Source: a virus. Taken from it: a stretch of 18,664 nucleotides of DNA. The notes beneath the pieces are model-generated. The model was not told the origin of the DNA, ran no database searches, and was given only the letters and a program-made list of their open reading frames with translations. Positions 1-18,410 of the stretch are shown in pieces. The DNA lies in UHGV virus genome UHGV-0257810; one strand, 5' to 3'. Within the stretch, counting starts at the first letter, position 1, and every line of letters starts with the position of its first letter. Made by a program: the position numbers and the translations under genes.

Positions 1-41
1 TCAAGGAGCTATTCAACCGTGGAACTGGACGCGATTCTTGA
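1..41 (+). CDS. Possible 3' end of the small terminase gene (partial; enters from upstream of the window)
   Basis: Frame +3 is open from the window edge to TGA at 39-41, overlapping the terL start by 23 nt. The position directly upstream of terL is where terS sits in P22-like phages. Frame +2 is also open, to TGA at 47-49, so the frame is ambiguous; only about 13 codons are visible and the call is positional. Confidence 0.3.
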   Translation, partial: KELFNRGTGRDS

Positions 42-1518
42 TAACCTGAGCGACGAAGAGCAAATCGAGTTGCTCGAGCTACTCGAAGAAGAAGAGAACT
101 ACCGGAACACACACCTGCTATATGAATTTACGCCATACAGTAAACAGCGTGAGTTCATCGACGCCGGGCATGACTATCCAGAGCGCTGTTTTATGGCTGG
201 CAACCAGCTTGGCAAGTCATTTACTGGTGCTGCTGAAGTCGCGTTTCACCTTACCGGGCGTTATCCGGGCACAAAAGGCTATCCTGCTGATGGTAAATAT
301 GGCGGTGAGTGGAAAGGTAAGCGTTTTTATGAGCCTGTTGTCTTCTGGATTGGTGGCGAGACAAACGAGACTGTAACCAAAACGACTCAACGCATCCTGT
401 GCGGTCGTATTGAAGAGAATGATGAACCGGGCTACGGTTCAATACCGAAAGAGGACATCATTAGCTGGAAGAAGTCTCCTTTCTTTCCGAACCTTGTTGA
501 TCACCTTCTGGTTAAGCATCACACGGCTGATGGCGTTGAAGATGGCATTTCAATCTGCTACTTCAAACCATACTCGCAAGGCCGCGCTCGCTGGCAGGGT
601 GACACAATCCACGGCGTGTGGTTTGACGAAGAACCACCATACAGCATTTATGGCGAAGGTCTTACCCGTACCAACAAATACGGGCAATTCTCAATTCTGA
701 CGTTTACCCCGCTGATGGGGATGTCTGACGTTGTTACCAAGTTCCTGAAGAATCCCAGCAAGTCGCAGAAAGTTGTCAACATGACCATCTACGACGCTGA
801 GCACTACACCGACGAGCAGAAAGAGCAAATCATCGCATCCTATCCTGAGCATGAGAGAGAGGCGCGTGCTCGCGGTATTCCTACGATGGGTAGTGGTAGA
901 ATCTTCCAGATACCGGAAGAGACGATTAAGTGTCAGCCGTTCGAGTGTCCTGATCACTTCTACGTAATTGGCGGGATGGATTTCGGATGGGATCACCCAC
1001 AGGCGCAGGTTCAGCTTTGGTGGGATAAGGACGCAGACACAATCTACGTTTCACGCGTGTGGAAGGCGAAAGAAAAAACAGCCGTTCAGGCATGGGGAGC
1101 CGTTAAATCATGGGCGCATAAAGTGCCAACCGCATGGCCTCATGACGGAAACCAGCATGAGAAGGGCGGCGGTGAGCAGCTCAAAGGGCAGTATGCCGAC
1201 GCTGGTTTTATGATGTTGCAGGAGCATGCGACATGGCCTGATGGCGGTAACGCTGTGGAGCCTGGCATCACTGAATTGCGCGACATGATGCTCGATGGTC
1301 GCTTCAAAGTATTCAACACCTGTGAGCCATTCTTTGAGGAGTTCCGCCTCTATCACCGTGATGAAAACGGGAAAATCGTCAAGCTTAACGACGACGTGCT
1401 ATCAGCCGTTCGCTATGCATACATGATGCGCCGCTTCGCCAAAATGATGCGCGACATCAAAAAACCAAAAGAGAAAAAGATACCAGCCCCAATCAGGCCC
1501 ATCGCACGGAGAACTTAA
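19..1518 (+). CDS. terL: Large terminase subunit (P22 gene 2 type)
   Basis: Complete 499-aa ORF with a GTG start at 19 and AAGGAG (3-8) 10 nt upstream. Acidic N-terminus followed by a Walker-A-like GNQLGKS. Length equals P22 gp2 (499 aa) as I recall it, and it occupies the first position of a canonical P22 late gene order. Confidence 0.9.
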   Translation: MELDAILDNLSDEEQIELLELLEEEENYRNTHLLYEFTPYSKQREFIDAGHDYPERCFMAGNQLGKSFTGAAEVAFHLTGRYPGTKGYPADGKYGGEWKGKRFYEPVVFWIGGETNETVTKTTQRILCGRIEENDEPGYGSIPKEDIISWKKSPFFPNLVDHLLVKHHTADGVEDGISICYFKPYSQGRARWQGDTIHGVWFDEEPPYSIYGEGLTRTNKYGQFSILTFTPLMGMSDVVTKFLKNPSKSQKVVNMTIYDAEHYTDEQKEQIIASYPEHEREARARGIPTMGSGRIFQIPEETIKCQPFECPDHFYVIGGMDFGWDHPQAQVQLWWDKDADTIYVSRVWKAKEKTAVQAWGAVKSWAHKVPTAWPHDGNQHEKGGGEQLKGQYADAGFMMLQEHATWPDGGNAVEPGITELRDMMLDGRFKVFNTCEPFFEEFRLYHRDENGKIVKLNDDVLSAVRYAYMMRRFAKMMRDIKKPKEKKIPAPIRPIARRT

Positions 1519-3684
1519 ATGGCCGACGAAAACAGACTCAATTCCATTCTGTGTAAGTTTGACGCGGACTGGATGGCGAGCGATGAAGCCAGAACCGAGG
1601 CGACAAATGACCTGTATTTTAGCCGAGTGTCGCAATGGGATGACTGGCTATCAAACTACACCACCCTGCAATATCGCGGACAATTCGATGTTGTTCGCCC
1701 GGTGGTCAGGAAACTGGTCGCAGAGATGCGCCGGAACCCTATCGACGTTCTCTTCCGACCCAAAGACGGCGCTAATCCTGATGCAGCCGATGTGTTGATG
1801 GGGATGTATCGTACTGATATGCGCCATAACACGGCAAAGATTGCCGTTAACGTTGGCGTTCGTGAGCAGATAGAGTCCGGCGTTGGTGCATGGCGTCTGG
1901 TCACACAGTACGAAGACAACGAACCAACAAGCAACAATCAGGTAATCAGACGCCTGCCAATCCATGAGGCCTGCTCACACGTCATATGGGACGCCAACAG
2001 CAAGCAGATGGATAAGAGCGACGCTAAGCACTGCACGGTGATTAACGCTTTGTCACGCAATGGCTGGAAAGAGTTCGCAGAGGATTACGGTATTGATCCT
2101 GACACCCTGCCATCTTTCCAGAATCCGAACGACACATGGCTGTTTCCGTGGGTATCGAATGATGTCGTCTACGTCGCCGAGTATTACGAGGTAGAAGAGA
2201 AGAAGGAGAAAGTCTTCATCTACCGCGACCCGCTGACAGGTGAGCCGGTCAGCTATTACCAGCAGGATATTAAAGACGTTATCGACGACCTGGCTAATCG
2301 TGGATTCATTAAGGTAGCAGAGCGCAAGGTGAAGCGTCGGCGTGTGTATAAGTCGATCATCACCTGCACGCAGATACTGAAAGATCGCGAGAAGATAGCC
2401 GGAGAGCATATCCCAATCGTTCCAGTGTATGGAGAATGGTCATTTGCTGGTGACAAGGAGTGCTACGAAGGCGTGGTAAGGCTGACGAAAGACGGTCAGC
2501 GCCTTCGTAACATGATCATGTCATTCAACGCCGATATTGTTGCTCGTTCACCGAAGAAGAAACCGACCTTCTTCCCTGAGCAAATCGAAGGCTACGAATA
2601 CATGTACGGTGGAAATGATGACTATCCGTACTATCTGCAGAACAGGACCGATGAAAACGGTAACGACCTGCCGATTGGTCCAATCTCCTACATGGAAAAC
2701 CCTGAAGTGCCGCAAGCCAACGCTTACATGCTTGAGGCTGCCACCAACGCAGTGAAAGAGGTGGCTAGTCTTGGTGTGGATGCGCAGGCAGCAAACTCTC
2801 AGGTCGCTTTCGATACCGTCAATCAACTGAACATGCGGGCAGACCTTGAGACATACGTGTTTCAGGATAACCTAGCTACCGCAATGCGACGTGATGGCGA
2901 GATTTATGCCTCAATGGTCAACGATATTTATGACGTACCTCGTCATGTAACGCTGACACTTGAAGATGGAAGCGAGAAAGACGTTCAACTCTATGCGCAA
3001 GTTGTCGATTACCAGTCCGGCAATGTGGTCACACTCAACGACATTCGCGGTCGCTATGAGTGCTATACAGACGTCGGACCATCCTTCCAGAGTATGAAGG
3101 AACAGAACCGCGCAGAGATTCAGGAGTTGCTCACCAAGGTTCCGCAAGGTACTCCAGAGTTCCAGATGCTGATGCTGCAATACTTCACGCTGCTTGACGG
3201 TAAAGGCGTCGAGATGATGCGAGAGTACGCGAACAAGCAACTGGTGATGATGGGGCTGAAGAAACCAGAAACACCTGAAGAGATGGAGATGGTGCAGCAG
3301 GCACAACAACAGCCGCAGCAGCCATCAGCAGAGCAAATTCAGGCGCAGGGTATCCTTCTGCAAGGTCAGGCTGAATTGCTCAAGGCAGAGAACCAACAGG
3401 CGCAGATTCAGGTTGAAGCCGCCAAGGTTGAAGCCCAAAACCAACTCAACGCCGCGAAGATTGCAGAAATCTTCAACAATATGGACCTCGACAAGCAGGC
3501 AGAACTGCGTGAGTACCTCAAGCTCGTAGGTCAATTCCAGCAACAGCGCAGCAAAGACGCTCGTGCTAACGCTGAGCTGCTTCTTAAAGATGCAGACCAG
3601 ACTCATTCACAACGCATGGATTTCGCGAATCTTATGCGTCAAGTTCAAATCCCCTCCGGCGGAGTAGCCGAGACACCTCAATAA
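1519..3684 (+). CDS. Portal protein (P22 gp1 type)
   Basis: ATG at 1519 directly follows the terL stop (TAA 1516-1518), with GGAGAA 7 nt upstream. 721 aa against about 725 aa for P22 portal. Gln-rich helical C-terminus ([10 protein letters not shown]...[25 protein letters not shown]) fits the P22 portal C-terminal barrel. Confidence 0.9.
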
Positions 3685-3697
3685 GAGAGAGTTAATC

Positions 3698-4609
3698 ATG
3701 GACCAAACCACCGACATTCAGGCTTCTGAAGAATTAACCCTGCCCGGCAATCATGCAGCGGCATCTGCTGATGGCTTAGTTGTCGATAATGCCAACGACA
3801 ACGCAGGTCAGGAAGAAGGCTTCGAGATTGTCCTGAAAGACGATGAGAAACCAAAACAAGACCCGGCAACTAATGCTGAATTTGCCCGTCGCCGCATCGA
3901 ACGCAAACGCCAGCGTGAGCTTGAGCAGCAGATGGAAGCGGTTAAGCGAGGGGAGTTGCCGGAGCACCTGCGGGTGAACCCTGAGTTACCAAAACAACCA
4001 GACCCTAACGATTATCTTTCCGAAGACGCACTGGCTAAGTACGACTATGACCAGAGCCGCGCACTGGCTGCCTTCCAGCAGGCAAACAGTGAATGGCAGA
4101 TCAAGGCTATGGACGCACGAAGCCAGGCTGTCGCCGAGCAGGGCCGCAAAACTCAGGAGTTCACCCAGCAATCAGCGCAATACGTCGAGGCAGCCCGTAA
4201 GCACTACGACGCAGCGGAAAAGCTCAATATCCCTGACTATCAGGAGAAAGAGGACGCATTCATGCAACTGGTTCCGCCAGCAGTCGGTGCCGACATCATG
4301 CGCCTCTTCCCGGAGAAATCCGCTGCACTCATGTATCACCTTGGTGCTAATCCTGAGAAAACACGCCAGTTGCTGGCGATGGACGGGCAATCCGCGCTGA
4401 TTGAACTCACTCGACTGTCAGAACGTTTAACTCTCAAGCCTCGAGCCAAACCTGTTTCAGAAGCCCCGCTACCTGATGAACCCATTCAGGGACACGCTGT
4501 TGCTGCAAATATCTCTGCGATTGAAAAGCAGATGGAAGCGGCAGCAAACAAAGGGGATGTAGAGACGTACCGCAAGCTCAAGGCGCAACTGAATAAAGGA
4601 ATTCGATAA
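3698..4609 (+). CDS. Scaffolding protein (P22 gp8 type)
   Basis: 303 aa, the same length as P22 gp8. Highly charged, helical and Ala/Glu/Lys-rich, lying between portal and coat. Its TAA stop overlaps the coat ATG. Confidence 0.85.
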
Positions 4610-5904
4610 TGGCATTAAATGAAGGTCAACTGGTCACGTATGCTCTGGATGAAATCATCGAAACCGTCCAGAACCTGACGCCAATGGCGTCCAAAGTGAC
4701 AAAATACACCCCTCCGGCAGAATCCATGCAGCGTTCAAGCAACACCGTGTGGATGCCTGTTGAGCAGGAAGCGCCAACTCAGACTGGCTGGGATTTAACT
4801 GGCAAAGCTACTGGGATTCTGGAGCTCTCCGTGAAATGCAACATGGGTGATCCGGATAACGATTTCTTCGAGCTTCGTGCAGATGACCTGCGTGATGAGC
4901 GTTCTTACCGTCGCCGCATCCAGGCATCCGCCAAAAAACTGGCGAATAACATTGAGTCAGCAATTGCCAAACAGGCAACCGAAATGGGCTCACTTGTTGT
5001 TCACGATACCCGCGCAATTGGTCCATCTACTGGCCTGTCTGGCTGGGATTTTGTGTCTGATGCAGAGCGCCTGATGTTCTCCCGTGAGCTAAACCGCGAT
5101 ATGGGCATCAGTTACTTCCTGAACCCTGACGATTACCGCAAAGCAGGCCGCAACCTGGTAGATGGAGACATCTTTGGGCGCGTTCCTGAAGAAGCGTATC
5201 GCAACGGTACTATTCAGCGTCAGATTGCTGGCTTTGATGAAATTCTTCGCTCACCGAAACTTCCGGCAGTTACCAAGTCAACCGCTACTGGTGTAACTGT
5301 TTCTGGTGAGCAGAAGTTTAAGCCGCAGGCATACACCCTTGATACCGATGGTAACAAAGAGAACGTCGACAACCGTGTTGCAACGGTGACCGTATCCTCC
5401 ACCACCGGATTTAAGCGCGGCGACAAAATCAGCTTCACTGGTGTGAAATTCCTGTCTCAGATGGCGAAGAACGTGCTGACTGATGACGCGACTTTCTCAA
5501 TCACCCGTGTGATCGATGGTACTCACATCGAAATCACGCCGAAGCCGATTGCGCTTGATGACGCTTCACTGACAAAAGAAGAGAAGGCTTACGCTAACGT
5601 AAATGCTTCTCTTGCTAATAACACTCCGGTAAACGTTCTGAACGTGGCAACAACCACCGCTAACGTGTTCTGGGCTGATGACTCAATCCGTCTGCTTTCT
5701 CAGCCGATCCCGGTAACCCATGAACTGTTTGCTGGCATGAAAACGTCTTCCTTCAGCATTCCAGGTATTGGTGTTAACGGCATCTTCGCAACGCAGGGTG
5801 ATATCAACACTCTGTCTGGTAAGTGCCGTATTGCTGTGTGGTATTCAGCATGTGCTGTACGACCAGAGGCAATTGGTGTTGGTCTGCCTAACCAGACCGC
5901 GTGA
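4609..5904 (+). CDS. Major capsid (coat) protein (P22 gp5 type, HK97 fold)
   Basis: 431-codon ORF (P22 coat is 430 aa). The start overlaps the scaffold stop (TAATG). Followed immediately by a strong hairpin terminator, as expected for the most abundant virion protein. Confidence 0.9.
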
Positions 5905-5910
5905 TAACCA

Positions 5911-5934
5911 GAGGGAGCTTCGGCTCCCTTTTCT
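5911..5934 (+). terminator. Intrinsic terminator or attenuator downstream of the coat gene
   Basis: GGGAGC (5913-5918), UUCG tetraloop (5919-5922), GCTCCC (5923-5928), then TTTTCT; located 9 nt after the coat stop codon. Probably partial, because essential late genes continue downstream. Confidence 0.55.
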
Positions 5935-5948
5935 ATCTGGAGACAAGC

Positions 5949-6191
5949 ATGACACACATGATCTTTCGTCATGGTGACATGAAGAAGTGGAAAGGCGTTG
6001 GCTACGACTTTGAAATCGTGAAAGCCGAAGAGCTTCAGGAATATCTGGATGCTGGTTGGTTTTCACATCCTGATGACCTTTTGAAGGATGTTGCAGAGCC
6101 AGAGCCAGAGCCAGAGCCAGAAGAAAAGCAGCGTAAAAAGCCTGGTCGAAAACCTAAGGCGGCATCAGATGAACCTGACAACGAAGGGTGA
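5949..6191 (+). CDS. Small hypothetical protein with acidic EP repeat and basic PGRKPK tail
   Basis: 80-aa ORF with GGAGA (5939-5943) 5 nt before ATG 5949. Contains an (EP)4 repeat encoded by a hexanucleotide microsatellite and a [10 protein letters not shown]-hook-like motif. Its last 23 nt overlap the gp4 start. I do not recognise a P22 counterpart. Confidence 0.45.
6095..6121 (+). repeat. Hexanucleotide tandem repeat (AGAGCC)x4 plus a partial unit
   Basis: Read directly: four perfect AGAGCC units at 6095-6118 followed by AGA. In-frame within the small ORF, encoding the EPEPEPEP stretch. Confidence 0.9.
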
Positions 6192-6669
6192 TTTAGTTCT
6201 TGCGGCATTACGTAAGCTCGGTGTGGCATCAAATGCCACGTTAACCGATGTCGAACCGCAGTCTATGGAAGACGGCGTCAACGACCTTGAAATGATGATG
6301 GCTGAATGGCTTGGCGGTGATGTGTCACCTGGTATCAACGTTGGCTACATTTTCGCTGATGCAGATGTCGCTCCAGATCCGGGCGATGAGCACGGTTTAT
6401 CAAATAACGCTATCAATGCTGTCATTTTCAACCTTGCCTGCCGCATTGCACCGGATTATGCGCTGGAAGCGCCTGCAAAACTTATAACCACTGCCAGATA
6501 CGGGAAAGAGCGACTCGTCAAACTGTCTGCAATGGACAGAGCAAAAGCCGCTAAATGTAAGTCCGGTTATCCAAACCGTATGCCTGTTGGTAGCGGTAAC
6601 CAGTTGGCGAAGTGGAACGGTTGGAATTACTTCTACCGGAAGGAACCTTGCGATAACGGGAGCGAATAA
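6169..6669 (+). CDS. Head completion / tail accessory factor (P22 gp4 type)
   Basis: 166 aa from ATG 6169, the length I recall for P22 gp4. The N-terminus [33 protein letters not shown] resembles the P22 gp4 N-terminus as I remember it. The longer track ORF from 6088 reads the EP repeat in another frame and is rejected. Stop TAA overlaps the next ATG. Confidence 0.8.
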
Positions 6670-8088
6670 ATGCCGGTTCAGCAACTTCCGCTTATGAAAG
6701 GTGTCGGCAAAGATTTCCGAAACGCCGACTATATCGACTATTTGCCAGTGAATATGCTGGCTACACCAAAAGAAATACTCAACAGCAGCGGATATCTTCG
6801 CTCATTCCCGGGCATTGCCAAACGTTCTGATGTGAACGGAGTATCGCGAGGCGTCGAGTACAACATGGCGCAGAGTGCTGTTTATCGCGTGTGCGGGGGC
6901 AAGCTGTATAAGGGCGAAAGCGAAGTCGGTGATGTTGCCGGAAGTGGTCGTGTATCAATGGCACATGGTCGGACATCACAGGCGGTAGGCGTTAATGGTC
7001 AACTGGTCGAGTATCGCTATGATGGCACGGTTAAAACCGTCTCAAACTGGCCGACAGACAGCGGATTCACTCAGTATGAGTTAGGTTCAGTCCGCGACAT
7101 TACACGCTTACGTGGGCGTTATGCGTGGTCAAAAGACGGCACGGATTCATGGTTTATCACTGACCCTGAAGACGAATCGCATCCTGACCGTTACAGCGCA
7201 CAATATCGCGCAGAATCGCAGCCGGATGGCATCATCGGTATCGGCACATGGAGAGACTTCATCGTCTGCTTTGGTTCATCGACGATTGAGTATTTTTCCC
7301 TGACTGGTGCAACCACAGTTGGTGCTGCTTTGTATGTCGCACAGCCATCGCTGATGGTGCAGAAAGGCATTGCTGGGACTTACTGCAAAACGCCATTCGC
7401 TGATTCTTATGCGTTCATCAGCAATCCGGCAACAGGTGCGCCGTCTGTATACATCATCGGCTCCGGTCAGGTATCACCAATCGCCAGCGCGAGCATTGAG
7501 AAAATTCTCCGCTCCTACACTGCTGATGAACTGGCTGATGGTGTGATGGAGTCTCTGCGATTTGATGCGCATGAGCTGCTGATTATCCATCTTCCGCGCC
7601 ATGTTCTGGTGTACGACGCATCTTCAAGCGCCAATGGTCCGCAATGGTGTGTACTGAAAACAGGCCTGTATGACGATGTGTACCGCGCTATCGACTTCAT
7701 TTACGAAGGCAATCAGATAACGTGTGGCGATAAGCTGGAATCTGTTACCGGGAAATTGCAATTCGATATCAGCAGCCAGTATGGGCTTCAACAGGAACAC
7801 CTGCTGTTTACTCCACTGTTCAAAGCGGATAACGCCAGATGCTTCGATCTGGAGGTTGAATCATCGACTGGTGTCGCTCAGTACGCTGACCGCCTGTTCC
7901 TCTCTGCAACCACTGACGGAATCAATTACGGACGTGAGCAGATGATTGAACAGAATGAACCGTTCGTTTACGACAAACGCGTTTTGTGGAAGCGAGTAGG
8001 GCGCATCAGGAAAAATGTCGGCTTCAAATTGCGCATTATCACGAAGTCACCTGTCACTCTGTCAGGCTGCCAGATAAGGATTGAGTAA
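6670..8088 (+). CDS. Head completion / tail hub protein (P22 gp10 type)
   Basis: 472 aa, the same length as P22 gp10, in the conserved position between gp4 and the tail needle. Start and stop are coupled to both neighbours. Confidence 0.85.
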
Positions 8089-8936
8089 TGGCTGATTCGA
8101 ATCTCAACACCCCTGTTATTGTGCAGGCGACGCGGCTCGATACATCAATCCTTCCACGCAATATATTCAGCCAGTCTTACCTGCTGTATGTCATTAATCA
8201 GGGGGCTGATGTCGGCGCAATTGCTGGAAAGGCAAATCAGGCTGGTCAGGGCGCTTATGATGCACAAGTCAGGAACGATGAGCAGGATGTGATTCTCGCT
8301 GACCATGAGCAGCGAATTTCTGCTGCGGAAGCAACGCTTGTTAATCATGAGGAGCGAATCAGCCAGGCAGAATCAACTCTTCAGGAACATGAAACACGAA
8401 TAGCGAAGAATGAAAGCGATATTGCGTCGCTTGATACCAGAGTTCAGTCGCTGGAGTCGCAGGTTTCAGACCATGAAACGCGCATTGATGCTCTGGAGTA
8501 TGCAACCACGCGCAAGAAGTCAGAGGTTGTTTACTCTGGCGTATCAGTAACCATTCCGACAGCGCCGACCAACCTTGTTAGCCTGCTGAAAACGCTCACG
8601 CCGTCATCAGGCTCGTTGGCACCATTCTTCGACACCGTTAACAACAAGATGGTTGTGTTCAACGAGAACAAAACCCTGCTCTTCAAGTTGTCGATTGTCG
8701 GCACGTGGCCCAGCGGAACCTCCAACAGGTCAATGCAGCTAACCTTTTCCGGCTCTGTTCCTGACACACTGGTCAGCAGTCGTAATGCGGCGACAACAAC
8801 CGACAACATCCTGTTAGCTACGTTCTTCAGCGTGGATAAAGACGGATTTCTTGCCACAAATGGCAGCACGTTGACCATTCAGTCAAATGGTGCGGCGTTT
8901 ACTGCCACAACCATCAAGATAATCGCGGAGCAGTGA
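8088..8936 (+). CDS. Tail needle protein (P22 gp26 family) with a C-terminal knob-type domain
   Basis: N-terminus [35 protein letters not shown] matches the conserved gp26 N-terminal tip as recalled. Followed by a trimeric coiled-coil segment with repeated HE-RI motifs ([40 protein letters not shown]). The C-terminal ~150 aa are Ser/Thr-rich and unlike the P22 gp26 C-terminus; at 282 aa the length fits the Sf6-type knobbed needle rather than P22 (233 aa). Confidence 0.85.
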
Positions 8937-9391
8937 TGATTCAGTTCAAACCAACGCGAAACATCGACCTGATCGAAGCAGTCGGAAATCACCCTGACAT
9001 TATCGCCGGAAGTAATAACGGTGATGGATACGACTACAAGCCTGAATGCCGTTACTTCGAGGTGAACGTGCACGGGCAGTTCGGCGGCATTGTTTACTAT
9101 CAGGAGATTCAGCCGCTGACATTCGATTGCCACGCCATGTATCTGCCAGAGATTCGCGGCTTCAGCAAGGAAATCGGGCTGGCGTTCTGGCGATACATTC
9201 TGACTAACACCACCGTTCAGTGCATCACATCGTTCGCTGCACGCAAATTCCGCCACGGGCAGATGTACTGCGCAATGATTGGCCTTAAGCGTGTAGGAAC
9301 CATCAAGAAATACTTCAAAGGCGTGGATGACGTGACGTTTTACAGCGCCACACGCGAAGAACTAATCGACTTCCTGAATCACGGGAGATAG
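8936..9391 (+). CDS. gp14-like protein (ejection-protein assembly factor)
   Basis: ATG 8936 overlaps the gp26 stop (TGATG), with GGAG at 8927-8930. Sits in the gp14 position of the P22 order 26-14-7-20-16. An in-frame GTG at 8933 is an alternative start. Assignment is mainly positional. Confidence 0.7.
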   Translation: MIQFKPTRNIDLIEAVGNHPDIIAGSNNGDGYDYKPECRYFEVNVHGQFGGIVYYQEIQPLTFDCHAMYLPEIRGFSKEIGLAFWRYILTNTTVQCITSFAARKFRHGQMYCAMIGLKRVGTIKKYFKGVDDVTFYSATREELIDFLNHGR

Positions 9392-9393
9392 CC

Positions 9394-10086
9394 ATGTTAT
9401 ATGCATTTAAGCTGGGCAGAAAACTGCGCGGCGAGGAACCTTATTGCCCTGAAAAGGGTGGGAAAGGTGGCAGTTCTGATAAAAGCGCAAAGTATGCCGC
9501 AGAAGCTCAGAAGTATGCAGCAGACCTGCAAAATCAGCAGTGGCAGACGATCATGAAAAACCTTGCTCCGTTCACGCCTCTTGCGGAGCAGTATGTTAAC
9601 CAGTTGCAGAATCTTTCCAGTTTAGAGGGTCAGGGGCAGGCACTTAATCAGTATTACAACTCTCAGCAGTATAAAGACCTTGCAGGTCAGGCGCGTTACC
9701 AGAGTCTTGCTGCTGCGGAGGCGACGGGTGGACTTGGTTCGACAGCCACAAGCAATCAACTGGCTACGATCGCGCCGACACTCGGTCAGTCTTGGTTATC
9801 AAACCAGATGAGCAATTACAACAATCTGGCAAACGTTGGGCTTGGTGCGCTGCAAGGTCAGGCAAACGCCGGGCAGACGTACGCCAACAACATGAGCAGC
9901 ATTGCACAGCAAAGCGCAGCACTTGCCGCTGCTAATGCCAATAAACCATCAAGTCTTCAGACTGCAATTAGCGGTGGCACGTCTGGTGCGATTGCCGGTG
10001 CAGGTCTTGCCAGCCTTTTGGGAACATCAACGCCTTGGGGCGCTGGCATTGGTGCTGGTATCGGATTGCTTGGCTCGTTGTTTTAA
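9394..10086 (+). CDS. Ejection (internal virion) protein, P22 gp7 type
   Basis: 230 aa (P22 gp7 is about 229 aa), with GGGAGA upstream of ATG 9394. Gln/Ala-rich low-complexity body and a glycine-zipper hydrophobic C-terminus (GAIAGAGLASLLG...GAGIGAGIGLLGSLF) consistent with a membrane-inserting ejection protein. Confidence 0.8.
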   Translation: MLYAFKLGRKLRGEEPYCPEKGGKGGSSDKSAKYAAEAQKYAADLQNQQWQTIMKNLAPFTPLAEQYVNQLQNLSSLEGQGQALNQYYNSQQYKDLAGQARYQSLAAAEATGGLGSTATSNQLATIAPTLGQSWLSNQMSNYNNLANVGLGALQGQANAGQTYANNMSSIAQQSAALAAANANKPSSLQTAISGGTSGAIAGAGLASLLGTSTPWGAGIGAGIGLLGSLF

Positions 10087-10095
10087 GGGGTAATC

Positions 10096-11427
10096 ATGGC
10101 TACTTGGCAAGGAACAAACGGCGGATTGTTGGCTGGTATCGGCGGCGTCAACTCAAACGCTCCGAGCGTAAATGACATCGGCAATACGCTTCAGCTTATC
10201 AGGCAGAACAATGATATTGAGCGTTCAGGCGCTAACAATGTTGGGCTGACTGCTTTGCAAGGCCTTTCAGGTATTGCTGGGGTGTTTCAGCAGGAAAAGC
10301 AGGCTCAGCGGCAGAAAGAATTTCAGCAGGCATACGCTAATGCTTATGCGTCTGGTGATCGCGGTGCTTTGCGTCAGTTGGCTACTCAATATCCAGAACA
10401 GATTGAATTCGTTCGTAAAGGCATGGGATTCATTGATGAAGATCAGCGTAATTCTATCGGCACCTTAGCGGCTGGCGCACGCCTTGCGTCATCGTCTCCA
10501 GAAGCAATGCAATCATGGCTGCAAAACAACGCCGGTGAGTTAGCTCGTGTTGGCGTTAATCCTCAGGACGTCGCTCAGATGTACCAACAGAACCCGCGGC
10601 AGTTCGGCGAATTTGTCGATCACCTGGGGATGAACAGTCTCGGACCCGAAAAATACTTTGACCTACAGGATAAAATGCAGGGTCGCCAGGTTACCATGCG
10701 CGGTCAGGATCTGGATTCGCAAACCGCCGCTCGGAATCAGGCAATCACAATGCGCGGGCAAGATATCCAGGCGAATTTAGGTCAGCAGCGCATTAATCTG
10801 GACGCAGAAACAAACCGCATTAACAACGAAAATAAGCGCCTTGACCGGATGCTATCAGCAGAAACTAACGACCTGAAGCGCCAGGAAATACAGAGCCGCA
10901 TAGCAGCCAACAACCAGCAGTTGCAGCAGAAGCAGCAAGCGCTAAATGATGGCTACAAAGACGGCATCAACACCCTCACAACCAGCATGTTCACTCTGAA
11001 CGATATCGTTAGTTCTCCTTCACTTAAGAGCATTACAGGCTTACGTGGAGTAATCCCCAACGTTCCAGGCTCACAGGCTGCAGACACTCAGGCACGACTT
11101 GATACCTTTAAATCCCAAGCATACCTGACAGCGGTTCAGGCCATGCGAGGCATGGGCGCACTTTCTGATGCCGAGGGCAAAAAGCTCGACCAGGCTGTTG
11201 GTTCGCTGCAGAACTCGCAGAGCGAGGAGTCCTTTCGTCGCAACGCTGGCGTCATCCTGAACACGCTCAACCAGAAGCGTAATGAGGCGGTTGGTAAGTA
11301 CGTTCAGCAAAACGGTATCAAGCGAGTGGAAGCGCCTCAGGCTTCTATAGATTACCTGAAGCAGCACCCCGAGCTGTCAATCGACTTCATTAATCGCTAC
11401 GGATATCTTCCATCTTTGGGGCAGTAA
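10096..11427 (+). CDS. Ejection (internal virion) protein, P22 gp20 type
   Basis: 443 aa in the gp20 position, with AAGGGG upstream of ATG 10096. Gln/Asn-rich with an internal repeat (VTMRGQDLD / ITMRGQDIQ). The stop is immediately followed by the next ATG. Confidence 0.8.
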   Translation: MATWQGTNGGLLAGIGGVNSNAPSVNDIGNTLQLIRQNNDIERSGANNVGLTALQGLSGIAGVFQQEKQAQRQKEFQQAYANAYASGDRGALRQLATQYPEQIEFVRKGMGFIDEDQRNSIGTLAAGARLASSSPEAMQSWLQNNAGELARVGVNPQDVAQMYQQNPRQFGEFVDHLGMNSLGPEKYFDLQDKMQGRQVTMRGQDLDSQTAARNQAITMRGQDIQANLGQQRINLDAETNRINNENKRLDRMLSAETNDLKRQEIQSRIAANNQQLQQKQQALNDGYKDGINTLTTSMFTLNDIVSSPSLKSITGLRGVIPNVPGSQAADTQARLDTFKSQAYLTAVQAMRGMGALSDAEGKKLDQAVGSLQNSQSEESFRRNAGVILNTLNQKRNEAVGKYVQQNGIKRVEAPQASIDYLKQHPELSIDFINRYGYLPSLGQ

Positions 11428-13821
11428 ATGGCTAATTACCGTGATTTGTTAGAGCAGGCTGGCGCACGTTACGGTGTGCCAGAAGGGTTGATGACTGCAC
11501 TGGGTGCCAAGGAGTCTTCTTACAACCCTGCCGCAGTAAGCTCCGCCGGGGCTGTAGGATTGACTCAGGTCATGCCTGGGACATGGCGTGATATGGGTTA
11601 TACCGATGAGCAAATGCAAAACCCCGAATATCAGGCTGACGCTGGCGCGCGCTATCTGGCAAAGATGTACCAGCAGTTTGGTAACTGGCGTGACGCTCTT
11701 CAGGCTTATCACGACGGTCCCGGCAACGTTATGAAGGCAAAGCGTGGTGAATATACGCCAGGACCTGAAGGCCGCGGTTACGTTGATGATCGCTTTGCTC
11801 AATGGGCGGGTGACCCGGTGACAGACTCAACAGTCGAACAGCGCGCCACCTCTGCAAAGGTACATCCTCAGCAAGACCCTAACAACCCGTTTGCACAACT
11901 GGAAGCACAGTCATCCGAACAAGTATCGGCATCAGGCGTGCAGTCAGACCAAAATAATCCATTTGCTCAGATTGAGCAGCAGGCAGCCAGTCAGCAGCCA
12001 CCTCAACCCGTAAGTTCTGTCGCACCGAAACCTGTTCAGCAGCAAGGCGGAATAATGTCTGACCTTGGTAATGGACTTGCTGAAACCGGGCGCGGCTTAC
12101 TACAGGCAGGAATCAACGTAGCGAACATACCTGCTGAACTCACTGATGCTGTAACAAGCGCGGCGGCTTGGGCTGGAGGTAAACTCGGCATTGGCGATGG
12201 TACATATCAACCAGCACCACGAGTAACAACGCAGGGATTAGAGCAGGACTTTGGCCTTCAGCAAGGCGCGCTGACTCCACAAACGACAGAGGGAAGGGTA
12301 TTTGCTGAAGCATTGCCTTACCTCACTCCTGCTGGCGTTGAGAGAGCGGCAACACAGGCACCAACACTTGCTGGTCGAATTGCTCAGGGTGCAACTCGTC
12401 TTCTAGCAGAAAACGCAGTTGGATCACTTGCTGCAAACAGTGCGAAAGATGATGCGGAAGCACTCGCCACCGATTTAGGCGTTGGTGTGCTGGCTGGCGG
12501 TGCTATTAACGCTGCCGGACGTGGATTAGGTGCTGCTTATCGTGGTGTTCGTGGTTCGATAGCACCAGAAGCTCAACAGGCTATCAGGTTTGCAGAGCGT
12601 GAAGGAGTTCCTCTGCACACCACAGACCTGTTACAGCCTACTTCCCGCGTCGGGAAAATGGCGCAGACTACAGCAGAAAATATCCCCCTGGCTGGCACAA
12701 GCGGAATGAGAGCAACGCAACAGGAAGCGAGAAGCCAGTTGGTGCAGAGATTTGCCGATAAATTCGGTGAGTATGATCCAGCGGTTGTTATTGACAGCCT
12801 TAAAGCGAAAACATCAGGAATTCGTCGTGCCGCCGGTAATCGACTGGAGCAGGTTCAGAATGCTATGGCTGGAGTAAACATTCAGCCTGCGCGAGCAATT
12901 CAGCAGATTGATACAGAAATATCTAATCTGCAGAAGCTTGGTAAGGTCGCCGATAACGAGACTATTTCAAAACTTCAGTCCTATCGTGATGAGCTTGTTC
13001 GCAATGCTGGTCCTGATGGTCCGGTAAATCTGGATTTGAAGCAATTAAGCGATCTGCGCAGCCAGTTCAGAATGGACGTGAAGGGGGAACGACCAGTGTT
13101 GCCAAACCGTTCCGATGCTGCCATTCAGCGCGTTTACAAGGCGATGACAGACGATATCAATGGTGCCATTGGTCAGAATCTTGGCAACGATACTCTCCGT
13201 AAATATCAGCAGGCCAATGCCGTCTACGCTGACGAAGCGGCGAAACTAAAGAATACCAGGCTGAAGAATGTTCTCATGAAAGGCGACCTGACGCCGGAAG
13301 TTGTCAACAACATGCTATTCAGCAAGAACAAATCGGAAATTAAGACGCTGTATAACTCAGTTGGTCGTGTTGGCAGGGCGCAAATGCGCAATGGCATCAT
13401 TGGAAAGGCGATGGAGAAATCAGGTGGTTCCCCTGACCAGTTCCTTCGGCAGCTTAACATCCTGCAAAACCAGACTGGCATCACATTTAAGGGGCAGGAC
13501 GCTGCTTATCTGAAAGGATTAAAAAACTATCTGCAATCCACGCAGCAGGCTGCAAAAGCGGCAGTAACAACACCCACAGGGCAGCAAACTATCCCGTTCA
13601 TTATTGGGTATGGGACGGCAATGAACCCGGCGACAACTGGCACAGCAGTAAGCTACGGACTTCTTACTCGCGCCTATGAGAGCGAGCCATTCAGAAATGC
13701 AATGCTCCGAATGGCAAACACCCCACGCGGATCGACAGCGTTTGAGAAAGCCATGCAGCAAGCGCAAAAAGCGATTAATGCACTGACGCAGGGTGCTAAG
13801 TCTGATTCGTTGTCAGAATAG
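11428..13821 (+). CDS. Ejection protein, P22 gp16 type, with N-terminal SLT-family lytic transglycosylase domain
   Basis: 797 aa, against 609 aa recalled for P22 gp16. The first ~120 aa carry family-1 lytic transglycosylase motifs (catalytic-type ES in GAKESSYNP, then AVGLTQVMPGTW, then AYHDGPGN). A linker follows with a duplicated NNPFAQ-x-E-x-Q motif, then a long Ala/Gly-rich body in the gp16 position. Confidence 0.85.
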   Translation: MANYRDLLEQAGARYGVPEGLMTALGAKESSYNPAAVSSAGAVGLTQVMPGTWRDMGYTDEQMQNPEYQADAGARYLAKMYQQFGNWRDALQAYHDGPGNVMKAKRGEYTPGPEGRGYVDDRFAQWAGDPVTDSTVEQRATSAKVHPQQDPNNPFAQLEAQSSEQVSASGVQSDQNNPFAQIEQQAASQQPPQPVSSVAPKPVQQQGGIMSDLGNGLAETGRGLLQAGINVANIPAELTDAVTSAAAWAGGKLGIGDGTYQPAPRVTTQGLEQDFGLQQGALTPQTTEGRVFAEALPYLTPAGVERAATQAPTLAGRIAQGATRLLAENAVGSLAANSAKDDAEALATDLGVGVLAGGAINAAGRGLGAAYRGVRGSIAPEAQQAIRFAEREGVPLHTTDLLQPTSRVGKMAQTTAENIPLAGTSGMRATQQEARSQLVQRFADKFGEYDPAVVIDSLKAKTSGIRRAAGNRLEQVQNAMAGVNIQPARAIQQIDTEISNLQKLGKVADNETISKLQSYRDELVRNAGPDGPVNLDLKQLSDLRSQFRMDVKGERPVLPNRSDAAIQRVYKAMTDDINGAIGQNLGNDTLRKYQQANAVYADEAAKLKNTRLKNVLMKGDLTPEVVNNMLFSKNKSEIKTLYNSVGRVGRAQMRNGIIGKAMEKSGGSPDQFLRQLNILQNQTGITFKGQDAAYLKGLKNYLQSTQQAAKAAVTTPTGQQTIPFIIGYGTAMNPATTGTAVSYGLLTRAYESEPFRNAMLRMANTPRGSTAFEKAMQQAQKAINALTQGAKSDSLSE

Positions 13822-14807: not shown

Positions 14808-14830
14808 ATGCAATCACATCATGGTTGCAT
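14808..14830. promoter_or_regulatory. Inverted repeat ATGCAA-N11-TTGCAT in the mnt/tailspike divergent intergenic region (candidate operator)
   Basis: Read directly: ATGCAA at 14808-14813 and its reverse complement TTGCAT at 14825-14830, about 30 bp upstream of the tailspike start and between two divergent genes. Function is not established. Confidence 0.25.
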
Positions 14831-14855
14831 CATATCATTCGTCTGGAGAAATGAA

Positions 14856-16937
14856 ATGTCAGATATCACCGCAAATGTTGTGGTAAGCATGCCTTCGCAA
14901 CTCTTCACTATGGCTCGTTCTTTTAAAGCCGTAGCCAATGGCAAAATTTATATCGGTAAAATTGACACTGACCCGGTAAATCCAGAAAACCAGATTCAGG
15001 TTTATGTAGAGAACGAAGAAGGCTCTCATGTTCCTGTATCGCAACCAATCATCATTAACGCTGCTGGATATCCGGTATATAACGGACAGATTGCCAAGTT
15101 CGTAACTGAGCAAGGCCATTCTATGGCTGTTTATGATGCGTATGGGGCGCAGCAGTTCTATTTTCCGAATGTTATAAAGTACGATCCAGATCAATTTAAA
15201 CAAGAGTTATCTAGTAATTCTGGAGCTTCATTAATAGGAACAGAGTCAGGAAAAACTGTTCAGGATGAATTGGATGAAATAGATAGAGATATTTCTCTTA
15301 ACAATATTTTATCTCATGAAAAAAATAGATTTAACTTTATCTTTTCACACTACTACAAACGTACTTTTAATAATGATTTAAGACTGCAATTACAGAGCTA
15401 TGTCGATGGGATTTATAATTTTGCCCCCAAAAGCGTATCTCTACCCAGTGGAAGATTAGTAACTATCTATACGGTAAAGGAAGGTGCCAATTCTGACCCC
15501 GGACAAGATGGTACCCCAATGCATATTGACTTCATGATTTCCGACGATAACGGGGTCAACTGGACGCAAACAGGTACTGTAGTTAATAAGGGTGTAGGTT
15601 ACGCTACATCTGAAACAATTCTATTCCTCAATAACAATGACGGGTATCTGTACTGTTTTTTCACTTCAATGAAGGGTATAACCGGATGGGGTCACGCCCA
15701 GCAAGGTACAGACCCGGACACCACATCCACCATTGAGTATTGCGTATCTAAAGACCGCGGAGAGACATGGAGCGCGCCGGTCGATATTACAGCAGCCGTT
15801 AAGCCCGCAGGTGCGTATTTTTCATCTATCGCACCGACGCAAGCAGGATATATTAATGGTAGACCAGCGATACCCTATTACTACCTTACTACTATTTCCT
15901 CCGGGATTGTAGAAGGGTATATAACTACAGATGACGATGGAAACTACATTTACGGTGGAGATGTCAGGAAAGACACCGATGTCGATACGCTAGGAACTTC
16001 TGGCGGCGAGATTGGATTTGGCAATTTCTATGATGGAACACCTTTTGCAATTGAGCGTGCTGCCGACACAACAATCAAACCGTATAAAATCGCAATACAA
16101 AAGCTATTAATGCAAGATTCTAGTGGGAAGTGGATTGTAAAAGGACAGTTCCCTACCACTGACTGCATGGCCTCTTTTTTAAGAGTTGGTCCTGATTTTG
16201 GGTTTGATAAAGATTATCTGTTTGTGGTGGCACCAATAGGATCAACAGGACAATTTGAAGGAAGGGCTAACCTTAGATTATTTGATTGCACTAACGACTT
16301 TAATAATCCTGTTGATAAGGGCATGTTATCTGTTAGTGCTGTTGTTGAAACAGGGTATAGCTCAACTGTTCTTTTATCATCCGGGGCGATGATGAGCGTG
16401 TGGAATGGGAGACAATGGACCGTCAACAACTCTATTTATACCGTAAACAGGCTTGTAGGTAATAATGTTATACCAGTACCTTTCTGTGGAACGCTTAAAA
16501 TAGTAGACACTAACAGAACTTTCTCACAGGATATATTCGTTAACGAGCGTGTTATTGGTATTGCTGACGGGATAATGTACCGGTGGACAGGATCGGATTT
16601 TGTTAGGGAAAATGCGGCGATACCATCGAAAATAAATTCAGTTGTCTCAACGCTTAACGCCGACATGGCAGACTTGTTTTATCTTGATTCATCGTCTTCA
16701 GGTTCGACATTAACCAGTATAACCGGTGGATATATAGGTAAAACAATACGTATACTGCCACTTTCATCACTTACAGAAGTTACCCTTGTAAAACAGGCAC
16801 CCGGCGTTTCTGTTAATGACAGAATAATGTACAATACGTCGCCTAGTGTTACTAAGTACAAAACAAATGGGGAGCTTATACAATTGACTAAAACTAACTA
16901 CGGATGGTATCTGGATAAATCAGCAAACAGTGTTTAA
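14856..16937 (+). CDS. Tailspike: P22-type head-binding domain fused to an Asp-box-containing receptor-binding domain
   Basis: Start at ATG 14856 with GGAGAA at 14845-14850. The N-terminus [13 protein letters not shown]...[20 protein letters not shown]...YDPDQF matches the P22 gp9 head-binding domain as recalled (first ~113 aa). Downstream sequence is unrelated to P22 and contains Asp-box motifs SDDNGVNW (15540-15563) and SKDRGETW (15747-15770). GC drops sharply just after the YDPDQF junction (~15195). Confidence 0.9.
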
Positions 16938-17091: not shown

Positions 17092-18249
17092 CTATGACAC
17101 CTTCTCATCAAGCCAATCCGCCCACCACTGCATCATTTCTCTGCGCTTATCGAGATACTGAGCATGGTTGTAAATCCCGCGCACAGAACCGCCGTTGGCA
17201 TGTGCCAGTTGCACTTCAATAGCGTCAGCAGGCCATTCGTGCTCGTTCATAATCGTGCTGAATTCATGCCTGAATCCGTGACCGCTTTCCAGACCCTCAT
17301 AGCCGATTTGTTTGATCACAAGTAGCACCGCGTTCTCGCAGATTGGCTTTTTCTTATCGTTGCGCCCGGCAAAAACAAACTCTGATACTGGTTTGGTGAT
17401 TGAGCTTAGCGTAGTGAGAAGTTCAACTACCTGGTCTGACATAGGAACTACATGAATTTTGCGTCCCTTCATCACACTGGCGTCGATGGTGATAATCCTG
17501 TTTTCAAAATCGACGTTCTTCCATAGCATAGAGCGAAGCTCTTTCGTTCTTAGGGCTGTGTAGCGTAAAGCTTTGGTCGCAATGAGCGATACGATACTTC
17601 CTGAAAATGTTGCCAGTGCTTTGTTGAATGCCGGGATCTGGTCTGCAGGAAGAAACGGGAAGTTCTTCTTGCGGTATCCCTTCATGGCGTCAGCAAGGTC
17701 AGGTGCTGGGTTATATTTAGCCCTGCCGGTGACAATAGCGTAACGGAAAACCTCGCCGCATCTTCTGCGGGCTTTGTTGGCTCGCTCCATTGCACCGCGA
17801 TCTTCGAATCTGCGGATTACTTCCAGCAGTTGCATCGGCTCAATATCCTGAATCTCAAGACCACCGATGATGGGTAAAATGTCGTCATCAAACATTTTGG
17901 CAAGTTCAGTTGCATAGCCTACTGACCAAACTTGCTTCTTGTGCTCGTACCATTCCTTGTAAATCGCACTAAATGAATTGTTGTTAGACGAAGCCTTTTT
18001 CGCCTTTACCGGATCGATGCCAACCGAGATGTCTTTCCTCGCGGTCCATGCTTTATCCCTTGCTTCCTGCAAAGTCATAAGCGGATATTTTCCGACGGTC
18101 AGGATTTTCTCCTTACCGTCAATCTTGTAGCGAAGCTGCCACACCTTTTTCCCGGATACAGGGACATAAAGGTACAGGCCATTACCATCGAGAAGGCGGT
18201 ATGGTTTTTCTTTCGGCTTTGCTGCTTCAATCTGCTTAACGGTGAGCAT
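17092..18249 (-). CDS. int: Tyrosine integrase, P4-like family
   Basis: N-terminal AAKPKEKPYRLLDGNGLYLYV arm-binding-type motif, and C-terminal HGFRHEF...VRGIYNHAQY consistent with a tyrosine recombinase catalytic region. The gene is transcribed away from the adjacent tRNA. Start chosen at ATG 18249 (MLTVKQIEAAKPK..., 385 aa); the track ORF extends to a GTG at 18285. Confidence 0.9.
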   Translation of the reverse strand: MLTVKQIEAAKPKEKPYRLLDGNGLYLYVPVSGKKVWQLRYKIDGKEKILTVGKYPLMTLQEARDKAWTARKDISVGIDPVKAKKASSNNNSFSAIYKEWYEHKKQVWSVGYATELAKMFDDDILPIIGGLEIQDIEPMQLLEVIRRFEDRGAMERANKARRRCGEVFRYAIVTGRAKYNPAPDLADAMKGYRKKNFPFLPADQIPAFNKALATFSGSIVSLIATKALRYTALRTKELRSMLWKNVDFENRIITIDASVMKGRKIHVVPMSDQVVELLTTLSSITKPVSEFVFAGRNDKKKPICENAVLLVIKQIGYEGLESGHGFRHEFSTIMNEHEWPADAIEVQLAHANGGSVRGIYNHAQYLDKRREMMQWWADWLDEKVS

Positions 18250-18410
18250 GGGTAAAAATCCGGTTGGTAAAATTATTTTATCCACTTTTTACCCGTCATG
18301 GAGTGCGGCTGTCAACGATCTGAAGCGAACCATGACGAACTGTGAATCTACGGAAGGCTTGATATTCAGGGGGTTTTGCGGACTGGTACGGATGGGAGCG
18401 AACTGATAAA

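Follow-up and report, generated by a model that had tools for sequence, protein, structure and literature searches.

A P22 orf69-family gene with an in-frame hexanucleotide repeat between the coat and gp4 genes of an Escherichia prophage

The small gene behind the coat gene

The stretch analyzed here, UHGV virus genome UHGV-0257810 (18,664 nucleotides (nt), one strand; hereafter the window), covers the late, virion-assembly genes of an Escherichia prophage that is P22-like (Lederbergvirus-type). A small open reading frame (ORF) at 5949–6191 lies between the coat gene and that of gp4, the head-tail adaptor; a preliminary description of the sequence had presented this ORF as unrecognised. The best explanation of this locus as a whole, to which we give a probability of roughly 0.8, is a gene of the phage P22 orf69 family, encoding a three-part protein whose spacer contains an in-frame array with a variable number of tandem repeats (VNTR). 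The features of the interval are as follows.

5911–5930, plus strand: post-coat hairpin GGGAGC-TTCG-GCTCCC, followed by a T-run to 5934 (RNA fold centroid)
5939–5942, plus strand: Shine-Dalgarno sequence GGAG of the small ORF, 6 nt 5′ of the ATG at 5949 (read from the sequence)
5949–6191, plus strand: small ORF of the orf69 family
5949–6086, plus strand: predicted N-terminal folded domain, residues 1–46 (AlphaFold2 and family alignment)
6088–6168, plus strand: gp4 frame open without a stop codon 5′ of the gp4 start, neither conserved nor truly coding (comparative)
6096–6119, plus strand: (GAGCCA)4 in-frame hexanucleotide VNTR, encoding EPEPEPEP within the acidic spacer, residues 47–59
6126–6161, plus strand: basic AT-hook-like tail, residues 60–71 (family alignment)
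6155–6159, plus strand: Shine-Dalgarno sequence TAAGG of gp4, inside the Pro-Lys-Ala codons of the tail (CCT AAG GCG G), 9 nt before the gp4 ATG
6169–6669, plus strand: gp4, head-tail adaptor, 166 amino acids (aa) (PF11650, E 1.5e-57; start set by alignment with P22 gp4)

The small ORF runs from the ATG at 5949 to the TGA at 6189–6191 and encodes 80 aa (9.3 kDa, isoelectric point 4.9). A program-made ORF list begins it at the GTG at 5901, which overlaps the coat stop codon and places the hairpin inside the frame, and the Met at 5949 is the point from which P22 orf69 aligns by BLASTP. With GGAG 6 nt before this ATG and a hairpin before that, the preliminary description was correct in placing an ORF with a good Shine-Dalgarno sequence just past the coat terminator. 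At the equivalent post-coat site, hairpins of different, compensating sequence are found in P22, in Sf6, and in six metagenomic or genomic relatives (the set L089–L097), and the P22 and Sf6 records label theirs as a stem_loop or terminator. Despite this support from folding and comparison, a simple terminator scan did not call the window hairpin; an Rfam scan of 5700–6400 gave no match. The element at 5911–5930 is best read as a conserved coat terminator or mRNA-stabilising stem-loop.

The coding status of the ORF was assessed in 86 close loci, comprising 6 phage records and 80 IMG/VR contigs. The ORF is intact in all 86, and third codon positions account for 15 of the 20 variable sites in its first 147 nt (binomial p = 1.7e-4). 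Against homologues with 67–76% identical N-domains, from Enterobacter and others, the ratio of nonsynonymous to synonymous substitution rates (dN/dS) for the N-domain is 0.065–0.107, with dN of 0.12–0.19 and dS of about 1.8, which is near saturation. Both alternative frames over the N-domain are full of stop codons. In the tail, the Gly-Arg-Lys codons of P22 (GGC CGC AAG) and of the window (GGT CGA AAA) differ only synonymously. These patterns show that the small ORF is a genuine protein-coding gene under strong purifying selection. Conservation of the nucleotide sequence alone, which the preliminary description had named as the outcome that would count against the ORF, was not what the comparison gave, since the conservation lies at the protein level.

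The window protein matches the PHROG profile phrog_1175 with E 2.4e-37, its residues 1–78 covering profile positions 1–72 of 72, and P22 orf69 matches the same profile with E 4.5e-31. The two proteins align directly by BLASTP (E 6e-11, 36% identity) and share the segments EL.EY..GW..HP..LL and GRKPKA.SD. In the P22 record (NC_002371), orf69 (NP_059631) is annotated at 6135–6344, after the post-coat stem-loop and overlapping gene 4 by 17 nt. These matches show that the small ORF is the orthologue of P22 orf69, a member of PHROG 1175 ("unknown function"). The ORF had therefore been recognised before, in NC_002371, in PHROG 1175, and as a RefSeq hypothetical protein. NCBI proteins 94–99% identical to it are likewise named "hypothetical protein". 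The query stretch was matched in 217 of 5,426 complete E. coli genomes, in 173 of them over at least 80% of its length, and in the sampled E. coli records PGAP lists a hypothetical protein adjoining a "packaged DNA stabilization gp4 family protein".

An exhaustive hidden Markov model (HMM) search over 1.8 billion representatives gave only 33 matches at E ≤ 1e-3, about half of which are small proteins of the orf69 family, and a second homologue search, started from a family alignment, added little beyond the close relatives already found and gave no informative names. Neither Pfam nor NCBIfam holds a family for the small ORF, and the PADLOC defence models gave no match; a weak Pfam match, to trypanosome procyclin (E 0.049), reflects composition alone and was rejected. 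Every divergent member that could be placed on a contig directly follows a P22-type coat gene, and the next gene downstream is of the gp4 type wherever the contig is long enough to identify it. The order coat, ORF, gp4 is present in the related loci L089, L091, L093, L094, and L095–L097, with homologues down to about 30% identity; L092 is too short and shows only the upstream coat gene. This synteny persists even where the coat protein is only about 26% identical.

Parts of the predicted protein

An AlphaFold2 model was computed with a 30-sequence family alignment. Its predicted local distance difference test (pLDDT) scores are 86–92 for residues 1–40, about 50 for residues 50–80, and below 50 for residues 50–60. 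The model has a beta-hairpin with strands 2–14 and 17–25, a helix at 26–34, and a short helix at 41–48. Across the family, Gly36-Trp37 is invariant and Gly9, His40, and Pro41 are nearly so, and both the alignments and the model give the same succession of a folded domain with Gly-Trp, an acidic linker, and a basic tail. These results show that the predicted protein has three parts: a beta-beta-alpha "GW" domain, a disordered acidic, Pro-rich spacer, and a short basic tail. A sequence-profile search of the PDB found nothing relevant, no solved or predicted structure of known function was found to resemble the N-domain, and Foldseek against BFVD returned uncharacterised phage proteins only.

A relationship of the N-domain was found elsewhere. 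In a whole-library hmmsearch, GIY-YIG and HNH proteins that Pfam and PHROG name "homing endonuclease" were matched with E 2e-7 to 9e-4, and the same proteins also match the independently built phrog_1175 profile, with E 2e-14 and 2e-8. The C-terminal regions of these endonucleases carry 2–5 tandem units of about 35 aa, with the consensus ...I-Y-x-K-D-G-x-x-K-x-V-x-x-x-E-L-Q-x-Y-L-D-N-G-W.... Profile-profile alignment with hhalign gave a probability of 95.5% over 19 columns, which cover the strand-helix-GW core. The AlphaFold2 model of one endonuclease unit runs hairpin, helix, GW, in the same order as the N-domain of the small ORF, so that the module recurs as a beta-hairpin followed by a helix with E-L-Q-x-Y-L-D-x-G-W. 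On this evidence the N-domain is a single copy of a module that phage homing endonucleases otherwise use in their target-recognition half. A Pfam scan of the 80-aa protein found neither a GIY-YIG nor an HNH nuclease domain. The location of the GW module in the endonucleases suggests that it may contact DNA there. The GW units in P0136, P0139, P0140, P0143, P0151, and P0152 (ELQxYLDNGW) have no Pfam model and no solved structure.

The spacer is encoded by the hexanucleotide array. By Tandem Repeats Finder, positions 6094–6121 hold 4.7 copies of a period-6 unit with a 100% match, and the lag-6 identity run is 22, as against a maximum of 11 across 200 shuffles; the array is therefore not due to chance. 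The preliminary description had read an (EP)4 stretch from a hexanucleotide array, which lies at 6096–6119, and had suggested that slippage would change the number of Glu-Pro dipeptides without breaking the frame. Both statements agree with the comparison that it proposed across related prophages. Copy number varies widely, from 2 to 8 in the seven phage plus window sequences, from 2 to 12 in the 86 loci, and from 1 to 12 in 120 database proteins, and the array length is a multiple of 6 nt in 86/86 loci, with none out of frame. The APC_JM3.2 phage record annotates the array as a repeat_region.

Loci with an identical remaining 219 nt of the ORF carry 2 to 12 units, which indicates that the array mutates much faster than by point substitution, as expected for slipped-strand mispairing. 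In addition, 68 of the 86 arrays are pure GAGCCA and one is a homogenised (GAACCA)10, and relatives at saturated synonymous divergence keep GAG CCA or GAG CCT. This pattern indicates concerted evolution of the array.

The array is a polymorphic tandem repeat inside a coding sequence, of the kind seen in contingency loci. A phase-variable switch was considered and rejected, because the 6-nt unit is divisible by 3 and no out-of-frame array occurs among the 86; a unit of this length changes only the number of Glu-Pro dipeptides and provides no on/off switch. Distant members carry non-repetitive acidic linkers, as in P22, or other Pro/Glu-rich linkers. These results show that the repeat is a neutral or nearly neutral length-variable spacer, and within the protein it is the inter-domain spacer that tolerates change. 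The gene is one already catalogued, and its repeat, though polymorphic, is nothing more than an in-frame VNTR of the ordinary kind, set in a disordered linker.

For the tail, the family consensus is K-[KR]-[PR]-G-[RP]-[KP]-P-K-A, and the window reads K-K-P-G-R-K-P-K-A. The resemblance to an AT-hook, which had been remarked on in the preliminary description, holds in part. The distant members P0133, P0137, and P0144 carry a canonical R-G-R-P at the same position (K-R-R-G-R-P), and P0133 has a sub-threshold Pfam AT_hook match, whereas the window tail has G-R-K-P without the G-R-P core and no Pfam AT_hook match at E ≤ 1. The basic motif persists in L091, where the ORF stops short of gp4 and a long distance separates the motif from the gp4 Shine-Dalgarno sequence; this argues that the motif is also selected at the protein level.

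The tail region also serves gp4. The gp4 start at 6169, set by homology with P22 gp4, confirms the 23-nt overlap that had been reported between the two genes, and both the Shine-Dalgarno sequence and the start codon of gp4 lie inside the small ORF. The P-K-A part of the tail is therefore doubly constrained. CCTAAGGCGG is kept upstream of gp4 in P22, in L094–L097, and in the window, and in Sf6 the TAAGGCGG core is kept after a different base.

The preliminary description had further considered it unusual that the repeat is open in a second frame. The gp4-frame ORF at 6088–6669 (193 aa) is indeed present, but its openness follows from the composition of the repeat, whose CAGAGC unit is stop-free in all six frames. 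The frame is open for only 27 codons 5′ of the true gp4 start, and such stretches occur in 23% of the off-frame windows of the window's own genes. In seven divergent loci (L095–L097, P22, Sf6, L089, and L091) the frame of gp4 offers no ATG, GTG, or TTG 5′ of the gene, and P22 has an in-frame TAA two codons before the gp4 ATG. Since the openness is at chance level and no upstream start is conserved, the ORF at 6088–6669 is an artefact.

Three phage records, PQ850616 (L002), PQ850600 (L003), and NC_019501 (L006), begin gp4 at the ATG equivalent to 6088 and omit the small gene; the phages concerned are IME10, Louie, and Dewey. The comparison indicates that the gp4 start is mis-annotated in these three records. 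For the metagenomic protein P0128, known from a single contig, the C-terminus of the small ORF is fused in frame to gp4, most likely through a 1-nt sequencing or assembly error within the 23-nt overlap.

Neighbouring genes and mosaic relatives

The other genes of the window are as follows.

19–1518, plus strand: large terminase
1519–3684, plus strand: portal-sized ORF of 721 aa (portal position; its 721-aa counterpart in L094 is PF16510)
3698–4609, plus strand: scaffold
4609–5904, plus strand: coat (PF11651, E 7e-165; stop codon 5902–5904)
6670–8088, plus strand: gp10
8088–8936, plus strand: tail needle, Sf6-type and knobbed (PF16532 C-terminal knob, E 4e-115)
8933–9391, 9394–10086, 10096–11427, and 11428–13821, plus strand: four ORFs in the places of gp14 and the ejection proteins (assigned from position and size, with P22 and L094 as references)
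14808–16937, plus strand: tailspike
17092–18285, minus strand: integrase

The Sf6-type needle knob stands alongside a P22-type coat and scaffold, making this a mosaic virion module. An SLT lytic transglycosylase domain (PF01464, E 2.8e-25) lies at the N-terminus of the 797-aa ORF at 11428–13821, which occupies the position of the last ejection protein, gp16 in P22. The tailspike has the P22 head-binding domain, and its receptor-binding part gives a weak, sub-threshold BNR/sialidase-like match. The 230-aa ORF at 9394–10086, at the position of P22 gene 7, contains a 21-nt unit twice at 9483–9524, with an 86% match.

The coat-gp4 interval itself is variable among relatives. Unrelated small ORFs, one of 76 aa and one of 54 aa that is very basic, separate the coat hairpin from the orf69 homologue in L095 (2767–2997) and L091 (3837–4000). 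At L094 4001–4588 (P0132, PHROG 3769), a WDGH domain of about 100 aa (PF25311) replaces the EP spacer.

A comparison of L094 with the window separates the two ends of the small protein. Scaffold, coat, gp4, and gp10 are 98–100% identical (gp4 99%) and the tail of the small protein is 95% identical, whereas the N-domain is only 37% identical. This pattern indicates that recombination swapped the N-terminal part of the gene within an otherwise identical structural module, and hence that the N-domain need not co-evolve with the neighbouring virion proteins. It speaks against a specific, co-evolving contact between the N-domain and these proteins, and would favour a generic partner instead, for example DNA, a factor of the host, or some conserved surface.

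Possible function and comparison with known systems

A tentative reading, which we hold possible but would not bet on, makes the product a DNA tether: an accessory protein of the late phase, absent from the virion, that would link DNA to a partner. Like an AT-hook, the basic tail would bind in the minor groove of DNA; the GW domain would touch DNA a second time or make a generic contact with protein, and the distance spanned by the two ends would depend on the stiff Glu-Pro spacer. Such a protein would be a positional and architectural analogue of the packaging chaperone gpFI of phage lambda, which is reported to bridge the capsid and terminase-DNA and to be bypassable (PMC13595911). The wider proposal is more doubtful still: that the orf69 family as a whole might be an overlooked, near-universal accessory of P22-like head assembly and DNA packaging, a gpFI-like tether joining an endonuclease-type DNA-contact module to an AT-hook-like tail, with its reach tuned by the EP spacer or the WDGH domain.

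Several observations weigh against the tether. The N-domain is acidic (net charge -3) and the isoelectric point of the whole protein is low, both atypical for a DNA binder; the window tail departs from the canonical AT-hook as described above, and the conservation of its P-K-A is partly explicable by the embedded gp4 Shine-Dalgarno sequence. For the GW repeat, no demonstrated DNA-binding role and no structure were found, and no sequence or fold similarity to gpFI (PDB 2LSM) was detected. A literature search on orf69 and P22, hkbT, the coat-gene 4 interval, WDGH, and the P22 AT-hook returned nothing on function, and no experiment on any member of the orf69 family. Finally, classical P22 genetics is not known to have defined a complementation group between genes 5 and 4, which suggests that the gene is dispensable in the laboratory.

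One alternative is that the product serves a neighbouring virion protein (gp4, the portal, or the coat) as its specific chaperone or cofactor in assembly, binding it through the N-domain, with translation coupled to that of gp4 so that the two are made in matched amounts. The invariant position directly 5′ of gp4, the overlap, and the gp4 Shine-Dalgarno sequence inside the ORF all fit, and the tail travels with the gp4 allele in recombinants, as the L094 identities of tail and gp4 illustrate. This linkage is explained by the physical overlap of the two genes, and an N-domain that has diverged to 37% and gained a WDGH insert amid an almost unchanged structural module makes a co-evolving N-domain contact unlikely. 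We consider a dedicated chaperone unlikely.

It is less probable again that a free-standing homing endonuclease once inserted between coat and gene 4 and left the gene behind as a domesticated or decaying remnant, or that the gene is of the moron type and acts on the host or against defence, in a role unrelated to assembly. The homology of the N-domain to homing-endonuclease repeat modules points in this direction, as do the unrelated small ORFs that the slot has accepted in L095 and L091 and the different family, phrog_3251, that occupies it in Sf6 and HK620. Strong purifying selection, the absence of any nuclease remnant or PADLOC match, and the retention of the family at this site even beside coats of about 26% identity, unlike the sporadic distribution expected of morons, all argue against it.

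A functionless product, in which translation merely opens the gp4 ribosome-binding site as a leader peptide or by coupling, or in which the ORF is a chance one, is very improbable. The gp4 signals inside the ORF would suit it, and no mutant phenotype is known; against it stand the dN/dS of 0.07–0.11 over the N-domain, which lies 80–220 nt upstream of gp4, the confidently predicted fold, the Gly-Trp that stays invariant in homologues of about 30% identity, and the L091 ORF, which is conserved without any gp4 overlap. The idea of a switch or a dual-coding region, in which slippage or frameshifting at the repeat yields an N-terminally extended gp4 from 6088 or an ORF-gp4 fusion, can draw on the open gp4 frame, on the start placed at that ATG in the IME10, Louie, and Dewey records, and on P0128. 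It is hardly credible and was rejected, given that all 86 arrays are in frame, that the unit is stop-free in six frames and the 27-codon opening has a 23% chance probability, that the seven divergent loci lack an upstream start and P22 has the TAA, that P22 gp4 aligns from the 6169 start, and that the fusion in P0128, found on one contig, is most likely the result of a 1-nt error.

Virus assembly has in P22 one of its textbook models, and orf69 lies in the P22 morphogenesis operon, conserved across P22-like phages without an assigned function. What is added here is that the gene is under selection, that its predicted fold is related to homing-endonuclease repeat modules, and that its tail grades into a true AT-hook among relatives. 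Current understanding is unaltered by this unless a function is demonstrated. On the practical side, several GenBank phage records omit the gene and begin gp4 too far upstream, and the fast-evolving VNTR linker could be a typing marker for these prophages.

Among known systems, P22 orf69 is the closest. It shares with the window gene the full-length PHROG profile, the slot between coat hairpin and gene 4, the short overlap of gene 4, the three-part architecture, and the G-R-K-P-K-A tail; it differs in its sequence (36% identity), in having a short acidic linker, PVEADDV, instead of (EP)n, and in the gene 4-frame stop upstream. The WDGH variant (P0132) has the same N-domain family, locus, and tail (95% identical) within a nearly identical structural module, and differs in carrying the WDGH domain in place of the EP spacer and in its 37% identical N-domain.

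Sf6 gene 6 and HK620 hkbT (PHROG 3251) have the same slot, an approximately equal size, the overlap of the gp4 homologue, and a terminal basic motif, K-R-G-R-K-A, that contains the TAAGGCGG gp4 ribosome-binding site. They have no BLASTP match to the orf69 family, and hhalign gives a probability of 1.8%, so that homology of Sf6 gene 6 to the family is not demonstrable, and the gene could be either an analogue or a very remote relative.

The gpFI gene of lambda resembles the window gene in lying directly behind the major capsid gene and ahead of the head-completion genes and in encoding a small protein; gpFI is not in the virion, as proposed here for the window protein. Sequence, fold, and tail differ, gpFI having no AT-hook-like tail, and the analogy is one of gene position and architecture only. 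In that architecture, gpFI is said, in the 2012 work of Popovic et al., to consist of a folded domain and a long flexible region, as the window protein is predicted to do.

The AT-hook (PF02178), which binds AT-rich DNA in its minor groove, is likewise a short basic Pro/Gly motif in a disordered region, reached by the distant family members with K-R-R-G-R-P and approached by the window with G-R-K-P, which lacks the G-R-P core. The Glu-Pro repeats of TonB are extended and rigid; TonB has no homology to the window protein, and what the two share is an alternating Glu-Pro spacer between functional ends. With other in-frame VNTR linkers, the window gene shares length polymorphism through a repeat unit divisible by three.

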